Assembly (NCBI GenBank): GCA_964016885.1 | Contig: OZ024745.1 | Location: 133,858,001-133,922,000 of the forward strand | Origin: Eledone cirrhosa | Taxonomy: Eukaryota | Reading direction: 5' to 3' | DNA length: 64,000 nucleotides | Shown: one piece after another, positions 3,092 through 35,362 of the stretch | Layout: each line of letters starts with the position of its first letter | Numbering within the stretch: the stretch's first letter is position 1 | Notes under the pieces: generated by a model | Databases searched by the model: none | Told to the model about the DNA's origin: nothing | The model's input: only the letters and a program-made list of their open reading frames with translations | Program-made: the position numbers and the translations under genes

Positions 3092-3261
3092 TAGGAACCA
3101 GTAAGACCCCGACAGCTGAGCTCAAGCCGTTTCGACCATTCGAAACGGCTTGAGCTCAGCTGTCGAGGTCTTACTGGTTCCTATTACCCACTCTACTACC
3201 TCAAGTATTGAGTACTTTGGTGCGTTATGGTCCACCTGGTTCCTTACCACATTTCCTTCGT
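3092..3261 (+). mobile_element. Miniature inverted PLE terminus: about 44-bp-arm hairpin plus about 77-nt tail, inserted in (TA)n
   Basis: 3092-3135 is the reverse complement of 3140-3183 with one mismatch. Contains a hammerhead 3' half (GAAA-CGGC...GCTG-TC). The tail recurs as a reverse complement at about 21670-21750. Confidence 0.8.
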
Positions 3262-4949
3262 TATATATATATATATGTATATATATATATGTATGTATGT
3301 ATATATATATAAATATTATATTTTATTTATTATAAACTTATATACATATATGTGTGTGTGTGTTTGTATTATATATATATTATCTGTGTATTATATATTA
3401 TATGCATTATATACATATACGTATGTGTGTGCACGTATAATAACTCACGCACATATAGATAATTAAATTATCTGATTCCTGTTTTAATACACCCTTGTTA
3501 TATTTATTATGCACCATTTATCAAATTTTTATGTCAGCAAATTTATTTCTTCACTTCCTCATACCCCCCCCCCCCCCCTCCACCTTGTCCTTGTCCCTGT
3601 TATGTTAGCTTTGTTCTTGTATGATTTCTGATTCTTCTGCTAATCTTGCAGAAGGTTTCACCATCTTTGTAACTTTTTTTTTTTATTTCACTTCCAAAGA
3701 CTTAAGGGGTTACTTTAAAAAGAAATAATAATATAAACGATGAACCCTATTCTTTATTTCAATATATCGTGACAAGTTTATCTGAGAAAGAAAATTGCAT
3801 ATAAACACGCTTTACTACTTTCAGCAGAGCTGTTAACATCGAGACATACTTTATTATTCTCAATAAAACCTCACAAGATATATTTCCTTGTCTCTTTCTT
3901 ACTAACTTTTTCTTATCCAATCCTTAGACTGCATTTCGGCTTTATTTTTTTATTTTGTTGTTTTATAAACGTCAAAAATAACATTGGTAATTCTGATTGA
4001 TTTTCACACTCCGATTCCATACTTACCACATATATATATATATATACTTACATTTATATATATATGTATATATATATGTGTGTGTGTGTGTGTGTGTGTG
4101 TGTGTGTGTGTGTGTGTGTGTGTGTGTGTGATAGATAGATGGGTAGATAGATGGGTAGATAGATGGGTACGTAGATAAATAGAGAGAGAGGGGGGGGAGA
4201 AAGAGAGAGAAAGAGTTAGAAAAAGAAGATAAATAGAAAGTAAAGTGTGGTGAGAGGAAGGAACGGGGGAAATGTGAAAAAAATGGGAAGAAAAAACCCA
4301 CGTGCGTATGCAGTCGGCTATCCTAGTGAGTGGGTGGTGAATGGTAGCTTCAACATCAGAGAGGTTTAGGAAGGGAGATAACTAATGTATAGTGAGTATG
4401 CATGTGTGTGTTGTTGTATGTGTCTGCGTGTGCGTGTGTTCGAATGTTTGAAGGAGAAGACATAACGTGATATGATGGCTGCTGACCGACGTAAAGGGGT
4501 GTATATGAATTTCACCATATACGTACATAAACACACACAAACAGCAGCAGCCGAGAAGGTTTGTGAAAAACATAATGGCCGGTATATTTCATTACCTGGT
4601 ATGGTTGTAAGAGAAGTTGCATAATTTCGCATACAACAATACAGTGGTACAACGGAAACCGGCTAAGCTGAAAGGTGTGAGGTCATAACGGGCGTGGATG
4701 GAGCCGGGAATTCGTGGGAGTAGAGTAAATGTTAGGGGTATTTTCACCACTGGCGACGCCACGGCGGACGAGCGCACCCAGTATCAAGCACACATGGATA
4801 TGAGCGCAGGAAAGTGTGTTGGTAGTGTGTTCAGAAGTAGATGTGTGTGGAGTGGTATATAAATACTGATGAGTATTGTGTGGTGGTTGGAGTTGTGTGT
4901 GTGTATATATGTACCTGTGTTTGTGTGTGAGGACAAGGGCAAAGGAAGG

Positions 4950-5275
4950 TTAATGGAACAGTGGTTGGGGGAGGATTGAGTCCAAACAATCCTCCCCCAA
5001 CCGCAATGGGTGAGGATTGCTCGGTCCTGTGGCGAGAAGAAGTGGATCAGTGGTGTAAAATGAGGTCTGAGACAGTGAGGTGTTGAGTAGTGTTGTTGGA
5101 AGAACAGAAGCGACCAGCGACAGAGTTTCTTTAAATAGTCGTATGTCCCTTAGGTGTTCGGAGAATCGGTCAGCCAGGTGGCGGGCTGTTGGTAGACAGA
5201 ACCATAAAGGGGACATCGGATATTGGACAATGTGGTGGAGGTGCAAGTGAAGGAGTGGTGAATGCGAAAGGAATT
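4950..5275 (-). pseudogene. Degenerate GIY-YIG endonuclease fragment of a Penelope-like element (canonical Neptune/Poseidon-like, not Naiad-like)
   Basis: Frameshifted translation FRIHHSFTCTS...IRCP..GS.Y...TARHLADRFSEHLRDIR matches the PLE endonuclease R.L..RF.EH helix. Confidence 0.7.
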
Positions 5276-5392
5276 GTTGTTACACACACACACACACATT
5301 TATATATCTATATATATATGTGTGTGTGTGTGTGTGTGTGTGTGTGTGTGTGTGTGTGTGTGTGTGTGTGTGTGTGTGTGTGTGTGTGTGTG

Positions 5393-5600
5393 TAGTAATA
5401 ATAAATGTGAAGAATAAAATCCGAAGAGGACTCGATAACGATTATATATAATATATATATAAACCCGCAAATATTTATTATAAGATTCACTGCTTTCACC
5501 TTTGATGGGATCTCCTAAAACTAAAAAATCAATCTGTGAACGCAGAAGTAAATGTTTCGAGAAACGTTGCAACCGAACGAACCTTAATCTGTTCTTATAA
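5393..5600 (-). mobile_element. Short terminal fragment of the PLE family at 22113-25437
   Basis: 5485-5575 aligns with 22141-22235; 5393-5483 aligns with the reverse complement of 25337-25437; contains a decayed hammerhead. Confidence 0.7.
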
Positions 5601-5700
5601 TATATATATATATATATATATATATATATATATATATATATATATATATATATATATATATATATATATATATATATATACATATATATATATATATATA

Positions 5701-32237: not shown

Positions 32238-32358
32238 TTATTGACACGTGTTTCTATAACAGTTACATAACCTGAAAACAGCTGCTATCTACAAAGTATT
32301 AGTTATGCAGACATTCAATATTTCAATGTTATTATTTACTGTCATTTCATCAGAATAA
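32238..32358 (-). ncRNA. Type I hammerhead ribozyme, inverted-arm copy
   Basis: Reverse complement of 34343-34463. Confidence 0.72.
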
Positions 32359-33254
32359 TATTACTGAGGACCTGTTTGGTTTTTATAGAGAATATTAGGA
32401 GGGAGGGGTGAAGTTGTTAGAAGAATAGTTGAGGGAGTGGTTTTTTGATAGCAGTGAGAATTTTTGGTGGCAGTGAGTAATTAGATTCCCATCTGTTGTT
32501 TTTATAGAATATATTATTGGTTATTTTTCTAAATCTATAGAAGGATTAGAGATAGTAAAGATATGCGTGGTTGGTTTTGTGTTTGCACTTAATTAACATT
32601 CAGACTTAAATTTTTCTTTCAAGTGTACGTATCCTTTCACCCACGCATTCACACACAAACATATTTGCACACCTCTACAAAATACATATACTCACATTCA
32701 CATAGTAACATGTTCATACTTACATACATATACACATGCATACATATATATATACACACATGTATTCATGTACATACATACGCGTTCATGTGTATACATT
32801 TTTATACTCAACTTATCTTTATATACACACGTATAGACACACACATATATACATACATACTCTAGTCTATGTGTATATATATACATATACATATATATCT
32901 ATATATATATATATATATATATATATATATATATATATATATATATATAAGCACTTTAATACATGAATACACTTACATCTAACTATACACATCAAACATA
33001 TATATATATTTACTTATTTATATACATTTTCACATATATATACATACTTATGGTCGCTTTTAGACACATTCATTATCGCATTTTTGCACCTATTCTCATC
33101 ACCATATCTTTCCATTATTAGTGTGGTAATTTGAGGTTTGTAATATACATATATATGTTGAGAAGAGATTGTTTTTATATTTTTCTAACTAGATTGAGGT
33201 TTATATAGTTGGGGGGATGTCCCTCTTTCATGTAATATTCGGCTTGTAGTGGGA

Positions 33255-33509
33255 AAAAATGTAACAACTTTAGCAGAAAAAGCTTGGACGCTCAGGGATA
33301 GCGATCAAAAGTTTACCCTAAAATGGGAGAAATTAACTAAAACCCAAAGCTTTTCCAGGAGCCAAAATTTCTGCAAATTGTGTAATCTTGAGATTTATTA
33401 CATAATCACACACAAGAAGAAATTGCTGAATAACAGAATTGAACGAACATTATTCTGCCGTCACCGAACTGAAACCCTTTTTTCCCACTACAAGCCGAAT
33501 ATTACATAA
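33255..33509 (+). pseudogene. C-terminal fragment of a Naiad-type GIY-YIG endonuclease
   Basis: TTLAEKAWTLRD..KWE..CKLCNLE..LLNNR..CRH aligns with the end of the 8570-10408 protein (TALSGVLWQLR..W..CDLCAEE..LNLR..CKH). Confidence 0.88.
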
Positions 33510-34342
33510 AAGAGGGACATCCCCCCAACTATATAAACCTCAATCTAGTTAGAAAAATATAAAAACAATCTCTTCTCAACATATATATGTATATTAATAA
33601 CCTCAAATTACCACACTAATAATGGAAAGATATGCTGATGAGAATAGGTGTAAAAATGCGATAATGAATGTGTCTAAAAGCGACCATAAGTATGTATATA
33701 TATGTGAAAATGTATATAAATAAGTAAATATATATATATGCTTGATGTGTATAGTTAGATGTAAGTGTATTCATGTATTAAAGTGCTTATATATATATAT
33801 ATATATAGATATATATGTATATATATACACATAGACTAGAGTATGTATGTATATATGTGTGTGTCTATACGTGTGTATATAAAGATAAGTTGAGTATAAA
33901 AATGTATACACATGAACGCGTATGTATGTACATGAATACATGTGTGTATATATATATGTATGCATGTGTATATGTATGAAAGTATGAACATGTTACTATG
34001 TGAATGTGAGTATATGTATTTTGTAGAGGTGTGCAAATATGTTTGTGTGATAATGCGTGGGTGAAAAGATACGTACACTTGAAAGAAAAATTTAAGTCTG
34101 AATGTTAATTAAGTGCAAACACAAAACCAACCACGCATATCTTTACTATCTCTAATCCTTCTATAGATTTAGAAAAATAACCAATAATATATTCTATAAA
34201 AACAACAGATGGGAATCTAATTACTCACTGCCACCAAAAATTCTCACTGCTATCAAAAAACCACTCCCTCAACTATTCTTCTAACAACTTCACCCCTCCC
34301 TCCTAATATTCTCTATAAAAACCAAACAGGTCCTCAGTAATA

Positions 34343-34463
34343 TTATTCTGATGAAATGACAGTAAATAATTACATTGAAATATTGAATGTCTGCATAACT
34401 AATACTTTGTAGATAGCAGCTGTTTTCAGGTTATGTAACTGTTATAGAAACACGTGTCAATAA
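34343..34463 (+). ncRNA. Type I hammerhead ribozyme with a stem II domain of about 90 nt
   Basis: TTATT(34343-47), CTGATGA(34348-54), A-ATGACAGT...ACTGTTAT-A, GAAA(34447-50), palindromic ACACGTGT, GUC triplet, AATAA(34459-63). Confidence 0.75.
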
Positions 34464-35362
34464 ATTCCTTTCAACTAAACTGTATCCATTCAAATCTTTC
34501 TATTTTTCTCCGGATTACTTTTGGAACTACAACTGGAACCGTCGAGCAAACTCTACGTGAGCTGTCAATCTACTGTGTGTAATATTTATATTACAACACA
34601 ACGGAAAATACTGTGTATATATATATATATATATATATATATATATATATATATATATATATATATATATATATATATATATATTTACACATACACCAAT
34701 TAAACAAAGTCACAGGTATATATGTGTTTTGGCAACTTTTCACGATGTGGCTCAATGGAGAATTAATAAATTAAATAATCAGAGCAAAATACTATAGAGT
34801 AAAGCATGTCCAGAGAATTATTTGATAATATATATACATCATCTCTACTCCGAATCAGCATAATTAACCACACAAAAAATCAATTAGACCAGGCTATAAG
34901 AATAAAAGGCATCTATGAAGAAACAGTAAATAAATACGCTATTGCGGCGTCTTCGCGTGCAACCGCTATAGAATATTTACCCAACATTTCAACAGCACGT
35001 GGAAATTAATTAAATATACGGTCAACCATACATAATTATGTAAAAATTTATGTTAGAAATGCTTATATACATACCAGGATTAAATCACTAAATTCCAGTT
35101 GAGATGGTGTATATATATTATCAAATAATTCTCTGGACATGCTTTACTCTATAATATATATATATATATATATATATATATATATATATATATATATATA
35201 TATATATATATGTATGTATGTATGTATATATATATATATATATATATATATATATATATATATATATATATATATATATATATATATATATATATATATA
35301 TATGTATGTATGTATATATATATATATACATATATATATATATTTTTTTTTTTTTTTTTTTT

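Follow-up and report, generated by a model that had tools for sequence, protein, structure and literature searches.

How does a retroelement come to lie in a (TA)n repeat as two copies of its own 3' end, oppositely oriented and with a tail on only one of them? The question is raised by a 64,000-nucleotide stretch of DNA from Eledone cirrhosa (assembly GCA_964016885.1, contig OZ024745.1, positions 133,858,001 to 133,922,000; hereafter, the window), in which an earlier note, made from the sequence alone, had pointed out six insertions of this design and assigned them to several families of Penelope-like elements (PLEs). PLEs are the sister group of telomerase, and the origin of their inverted repeats and tails is posed as an open question in the papers cited here. 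We use S for the short 3' end of an element and T for the same end extended by a tail of 57-113 nt, and number element positions relative to S. The pattern is real, it is found genome-wide, and it is common to two PLE clades. [quoted passage not shown] The architecture itself is known, while the strict pairing of S with T and the run-off evidence described below appear to be new.

Two fixed ends in a TA target

The arms of the window, which belong to five families (A to E), were mapped onto natural copies from the same genome of 3 Gb, in which exact arm motifs of 18-25 nt occur 10,808 times for family A, 25,840 for B, 4,585 for C, 8,701 for D, and 2,997 for E. The loci sampled were the first pattern matches by position on one contig (C1), with part of each match list used; two regions of family E, three of family D, and the last four of family B were picked for their paired look. 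Thirty BLAST-ranked copies of family A, which form a biased set, were excluded from every count.

The de-duplicated genome samples of the five families comprise 315 anchors. S is the terminus of 179 and T of 134, with 2 ending at other positions, so that the two discrete endpoints per family expected from the window describe 313 of the 315 sampled ends. The expected enrichment of TA in the flanks is also borne out: (TA)n follows 297 of the 315 ends, set against the 4.6% of window positions at which a comparable TA run begins, the next tandem unit follows ten, and neither is present at eight. The S end of family D has a second variant that is about 4 nt longer. Microhomology of 2-5 nt to TA was found at all ten ends (nine by script, the S end of D by hand), with a chance background for 2 nt or more of P = 0.18-0.29. 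Folding of six S-T or hammerhead regions gave no stable structure common to them (z from -1.8 to +1.0).

Two side observations concern these ends. In one copy of family A (L061:3395-3470), the S-end sequence (CTGGTTCCT..TTACC) recurs about 52 nt later within the tail, and might be a motif for protein binding; in families B to E, nothing comparable was obvious inside the tail. The PLE families also nest, in clusters, in one another's TA flanks (L018, L020, L038, L048, L080, L082, L105, and L128).

Long inverted repeats within TA runs are difficult to assemble, and the earlier note had itself raised fold-back assembly artefacts as an explanation. We find this scarcely credible: the structures are asymmetric, some of them are not palindromic, and their arms are not identical. 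Raw short reads from two other samples contain S ends running into (TA)n, in 1697 and 1438 reads, and joints between S arm and tail, in 3-9 reads each.

One S arm and one T arm per insertion

Genome-wide patterns for the short two-armed copies of family A gave 3692 with one S and one T end (S+T), 26 with two S ends (S+S), and 18 with two T ends (T+T). In about 99% of the counted pairs, just one of the two arms bears the tail, where an independent choice of ends would yield 50% S+T at most. A looser T+T pattern gave 150 matches, a value that is inflated because S ends then followed by T were also caught. The sampled two-arm junctions, tallied for families A, B, C, and E, agree with this result: from 125 junctions found, 18 were unclassifiable and 103 of the remaining 107 were S+T. 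The four exceptions are one S+S and three T+T; the latter represent internal read-throughs between tandem units, and two of these have S at their outer end.

A tail on one arm is also what endonuclease resolution would yield, in which both arms begin at T, or a T-ended intermediate forms, and one of them is then cut at S and joined to the target with loss of the tail. The S sites are AT-rich with TA microhomology and might be cut by a nuclease that prefers TA, and the PLE of an anole cuts the DNA of its own junction between open reading frame (ORF) and pseudo-long terminal repeat (pLTR) in vitro. We nevertheless regard this route as unlikely, since the uncut T+T precursors number just 18 versus 3692 S+T copies, lone S arms lying straight in (TA)n are common, and in vitro, reverse transcription itself begins at both ends of the tail.

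The insertions in the window

All six insertions described before were found, with coordinates that agree to a few bases, and a seventh of the same design lies at 5392-5602. TA runs flank all of them, as had been stated. The assignment to several PLE families stands as five families, four of the Hydra clade and one outside it; the six insertions do not represent six families, given that those at 3092 and 21669 both belong to family A. Tail lengths, previously put at 55-110 nt, measure 57, 80, 88, 93, and 113 nt. The features are as follows.

3092..3136, minus strand: S arm of a family A mini-insertion, element -44..0, matching the natural copy L062 at 97.8%
3140..3262, plus strand: T arm of the same mini-insertion, element -43..+80, tail 3184-3262
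5392-5575, minus strand: T arm of the seventh insertion, a relative of family D with 75% identity to the D reference
Ending at 5602, plus strand: short S arm of the seventh insertion, read from the sequence
5701..5930, S arm on the minus and T arm on the plus strand: insertion of family B (non-Hydra PLE), both arms from about -109, tail 5874-5930 (57 nt)
7058..10423, minus strand: T arm of family C, element -3250..+89, tail 7058-7145, hammerhead core at 7246
8573..10423, minus strand: 5'-truncated ORF of family C with Hydra-type reverse transcriptase (RT) and C-terminal endonuclease, motifs matching those shown for Hydra in Fig. S1 of Craig 2021
10460..11359, plus strand: S arm of family C, element -933..0, hammerhead core CTGAAGA at 11259
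21669-21748, minus strand: T arm, tail only, of a diverged subfamily of A, element -1..+80
Up to 21788, plus strand: S arm of about 38 nt of the same subfamily, read from the sequence
22110..25316, minus strand: S arm of family D (3.2 kb), element -3205..0, degenerate hammerhead-like core
23463-24350 and 24442-25317, minus strand: frameshifted pieces of the Hydra-type ORF of family D, inside the S arm
25312..25436, plus strand: T arm of family D (125 nt), element -32..+93, tail 25344-25436
32199..33259, minus strand: S arm of family E, element -1106..0, hammerhead core at 32353
33254..34615, plus strand: T arm of family E, element -1331..+113, hammerhead core at 34348, tail 34503-34615, overlapping the S arm by 6 nt
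504..835, plus strand: lone T arm of family B, element -268..+57, with TA runs on both sides and no inverted partner

The arms of the family C insertion (7058-11359) are 99.2% identical across 951 nt, and those of the diverged family A insertion (21669-21788) hardly overlap, which leaves a structure that is no palindrome.

Junctions, arm lengths, and arm similarity

The centres of the inner junctions vary from copy to copy, mostly with an overlap of 0-3 nt or a few inserted bases. Among the 103 S+T junctions, the S arm extends beyond the T arm on the 5' side by more than 10 nt in 41, and the T arm extends further in 25; in the other 37, of which 30 belong to family A, the inner ends lie within 10 nt of each other. 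The arms overlap by more than 10 nt in 88 of the 103 pairs, and the T arm halts at or near S in 15.

These lengths bear on self-priming, proposed by Arkhipova 2013 (PMC3846280) as possibly acting on an antisense template, in which one cDNA or the antisense template folds back and copies itself. The near-identical arms, the 37 pairs with close inner ends, and the short palindromes that are common at the junctions would all suit it. A copy made by fold-back, however, must fit inside its template, which is violated by the 41 longer S arms, by the 15 T arms that fall short of S, and by the window insertions at 21669 and 22110; a fold-back from S is moreover unable to make the tail, and the extra G described below can be present on both arms. 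Because a fold-back copy can neither outgrow its template nor add a tail, self-priming is not the general route, and we hold it to be very unlikely as an account of the pattern, while it may explain a minority of perfect hairpins.

Within insertions of family C, the arms diverge by 0.9%, versus 8.2% between insertions (500 nt, n=10), and the partner arm is the nearest sequence in nine of ten cases; the relation is weaker in family E. This similarity fits a single source for both arms, and later gene conversion is also possible.

Short copies of family A and their 5' stop

At least 10,639 short copies of family A, of about 175 bp, consist of two arms that both terminate at a short centre. Of the family A arms that reach -53, 93 of 106 stop between -53 and -63, and the most frequent stop is the AG of TTAGTC, 29 nt downstream of TATTTAAA; by their consensus, we read the former as initiator-like and the latter as TATA-like. 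In arms abutting TA, the base before A(-59) is G in 89 cases and C in 11 (the first 100 of 122, counted by hand), and at the control position -56 no G occurs among 83 matches. By analogy, an extra G at the stop would be the expected mark of copying the capped end of an RNA. It occurs on both arm types, and simultaneously on the two arms of 7 among the first 50 insertions whose arms both reach -59 (hand count); such concordance hints at one RNA, and a repair bias or the search pattern could also yield it.

As a side observation, the T arm at L077 (G000:C1:25027000-25030500) contains a template jump: after stopping at -58, it continues from a point about 820 nt into the ORF of a second template, to end once more at -56.

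The abundance of these short palindromes could suggest a non-autonomous family, similar to miniature inverted-repeat transposable elements (MITEs) or short interspersed elements (SINEs), that multiplies by copying a ready-made palindrome whole, and the BLAST-ranked set does hold many copies with one centre. The shared centre stems from the ranking by similarity to the query, and the position-ordered samples give many centres; in addition, identical S and T ends are found on kilobase copies with ORFs. We thus judge such a family most improbable, and the thousands of short, MITE-like palindromes within TA repeats probably represent abortive products of PLEs.

Hammerhead motifs and the endpoints

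The earlier note had placed the end of one arm about 20-50 nt past the predicted hammerhead cleavage site, a figure that holds for two of the five families only. From the predicted cut, S lies 51 nt away in family C, 31 nt in D (with a degenerate core), 110 nt in E, and 171 nt in B. Motifs of a hammerhead core occur in C and E, the core of D is degenerate, and A shows no canonical core. With the spacing not constant and no canonical core in family A, the suggested link between endpoints and hammerhead is not supported. Since the arms commonly pass the predicted cut, uncleaved RNA is the likely template, as it is in vitro, with the reservation that the anchors of C and B miss some stops there. 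An Rfam search of the whole window gave no hammerhead among the 150 of 157 matches listed, which were mostly matches of microRNA families on TA-rich stretches, and none was found in two narrow regions searched separately.

Element families and clades

Long ORFs were seen in natural copies of A (786 aa in L061), E (777 aa in L280), and C (672 aa in L246), as well as in B, and the protein of D is known from its broken ORF in the window. In A, C, D, and E, a single ORF encodes an RT and, as judged by motifs, a C-terminal endonuclease of the GIY-YIG type; a Pfam search returned no family for four window proteins. These four families carry DKT in place of DKG (SDKTG, SDKTN, ADKTS, and SDKTG) and RWK-type motifs (LRWRT, IRWRA, VRWKT, and LRWRA), their RT3 and RT4 regions agree by eye with those given for Hydra in Fig. 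S1 of Craig 2021, and their endonucleases lack the CCHH motif. The CxCX5C linker is present in A, C, and D, and the aligned copy of E (L280) is without the first linker cysteines; CxxC and CxH occur near the C terminus in A, C, and E. By these motifs, A, C, D, and E are Hydra-clade PLEs.

Instead of the Hydra features (DKT, no CCHH, CxCX5C), family B combines DKSG with a CCHH-type endonuclease and a short CX4CxxC linker, and is therefore placed in a clade other than Hydra. The short linker, which resembles the Nematis rows of Fig. S2, together with CCHH and a type I hammerhead, fits elements of the Nematis/Neptune type, and by its linker B looks Nematis-like. A search for homologs gave 176 proteins, none with a clade name, the best named match being a predicted protein of Octopus vulgaris (66%).

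The Hydra-type units are about 3.5-3.75 kb long. Where copies of A, C, and E stand in tandem, the tail is the native stretch directly upstream of the ORF that follows, and S and T both lie a short way upstream of its start. Family A, which is young, of Hydra type, and present in high copy number (L061:3300-3600; L062), has an open frame of 786 aa and no canonical hammerhead. A sixth Hydra-type PLE lies on the plus strand of the window at 35364-37528, beginning after a T run and a TA run, with an ORF at 35370-37037 and a hammerhead core at 37284; no inverted arm was identified for it, and a short related piece lies near 44945-44995. Further Hydra-type ORFs from families other than A to E, of 758 aa and 457 aa, were seen at L330:1734-4007 (minus-strand frame) and L248.

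Twin priming as the probable integration route

In the twin-priming reading, the endonuclease would nick both strands of (TA)n, each 3'-OH would anneal to the RNA at S or T through 2-5 nt, and both cDNAs would be extended toward the 5' end of the RNA, with end joining producing the head-to-head union. Priming at the S/T pair beside the capped 5' end would give the family A copies of about 175 bp, and priming at the downstream S/T pair would give arms of kilobases. The reading is backed by the two endpoints, the TA targets, the S+T pairing, the variable junctions, and the extra G; from its original form, the tie to the hammerhead falls away and the novelty had been overstated. The pairing, the asymmetric arm lengths, and the extra G speak against the self-priming and endonuclease-resolution proposals.

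Several observations weigh against it. Single arms without an inverted partner are frequent (about 11 of 44 regions in family C and about 17 in E, by hand tally), and therefore the second priming is not always completed or retained. In 74 of 100 arm views, family A arms continue to -60..-65 without G, so that the start of the RNA must be dispersed, and neither a comparable 5' stop nor an extra G was evident in families B to E. The ratio of G to C after ATATAT is 4:1 in the loci, against which the G excess reaches only p=0.013; where A follows, the ratio is 47:53. The lengths of the two arms correlate in family C (rho 0.49, p 0.012) and not in E (rho 0.13, p 0.55). A collision on one RNA would make the stops of T arms peak at S, and such a peak was looked for and not found: three successive 20-nt bins up to S hold 187, 291, and 49 matches, the last being undercounted owing to a subfamily variant, and the next bin (-10..-29) holds 138 for S and T arms together, of which the first 100 comprise 79 T and 21 S by hand count. 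[quoted passage not shown]

As to the template, we lean slightly toward one RNA in a complex with two active sites over two RNAs from one source. One RNA would be the simplest account of the pairing rule and would need strand displacement of up to about 2.5 kb. Twin priming may even be the default PLE integration route across clades, with one ribonucleoprotein holding a single RNA at two fixed sites, presenting S to one strand and T to the other, and copying the shared stretch twice by strand displacement; we put this forward tentatively, as somewhat less probable than its opposite. If true, it would account for the pLTR in inverted orientation, for the tail on one side, and for the MITE-like run-off copies of 175 bp, which number more than 10,000.

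Comparison with known systems

The suggestion that the pattern may be undescribed goes too far, as the inverted copy with a tail, the targeting of (TA)n, and two start sites in vitro have all been published. Craig 2021 (PMC8557442) describes an inverted, 5'-truncated copy with an optional one-sided tail of 30-40 bp as common to PLE clades and (TA)n targets for nearly all Hydra families, proposes endonuclease resolution, gives Hydra units as under 3 kb, and calls the canonical hammerhead universal in the clade. The Hydra-type families studied here share with that clade DKT, RWR/RWK, the RT4 region MGS.D.A(E/Q/D)V..L.GL, the absence of CCHH, the CxCX5C linker, and the (TA)n targets, and a 5'-truncated inverted copy is present in its listed member Penelope-13_HM. 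They differ in their longer units of about 3.5-3.75 kb, in the absence of a canonical hammerhead in A and the degenerate core of D, and in tails of 80-113 nt. In relation to PLE pLTRs in general (Craig 2021, Fig. 2; PMC3846280), the likeness covers the inverted 5'-truncated copy at the 5' end, the tail at one end, the junction palindromes, the partial tandems, and a TATA/initiator-like motif; the published tails of 30-40 bp are optional, whereas those found here measure 57-113 nt and occupy one arm only in about 99% of family A pairs.

The closest experimental system is the Poseidon PLE PAc of Frangieh 2024 (PMC11167929), which in vitro cuts and extends both strands from two internal start sites that match the ends of the tail; as here, the target is AT-rich and hammerhead cleavage is dispensable. 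It differs in showing no strand difference or start-site homology, in contrast to the strict S+T pairing and the 2-5 nt of TA microhomology of our insertions, and the portions of that paper covered contain no model for the inverted arm. The pairing, the asymmetry of the arm lengths, and the extra G yield a quantitative prediction for this existing system.

Twin and dual priming are known from L1 (Meyer 2010, PMC2837659; PMC11702581), where both target ends prime cDNA, the pieces are united head-to-head by little microhomology, and the extra G seen where 5' junctions are complete is attributed to the mRNA cap. The L1-type criterion, that both target ends are joined to inverted cDNA-derived sequence, describes our insertions as well. 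In L1, this is a variant route with a variable internal site and with pieces that abut with a small deletion or duplication, whereas the PLEs studied here use two fixed sites and have arms whose overlap can extend to kilobases. A literature search, which excluded most subscription papers, found no S+T pairing rule, no twin priming for PLEs, and no run-off copies with a cap-derived G; passages of PMC13282606 and of a 2026 preprint on retrozymes likewise contain nothing about the structure.

Other repeats in the window

An interspersed repeat of about 190 bp, probably a SINE or MITE, occurs in more than ten copies of 82-97% identity.

1603-2106, 13540-13750, 14707-14862, 26927-27480, 29702-29912, 30508-30697, 53957-54135, and 58351-58829: copies of the 190-bp repeat
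5791-6756 (minus strand), 18595-19116, 43353-44027, and 50388-51263: degenerate frames that we take to resemble C-terminal fragments of the RT of long interspersed elements (LINEs)
38546-40406, 41635-42550, 54131-55683 (62-bp unit), and 59389-64000: minisatellite arrays
20962-21150 and 34617-35303: inverted repeats with TA-rich centres and no match to families A to E

The ends of the inverted repeat at 20962-21150 presumably resemble those of Tc1/mariner inverted repeats.

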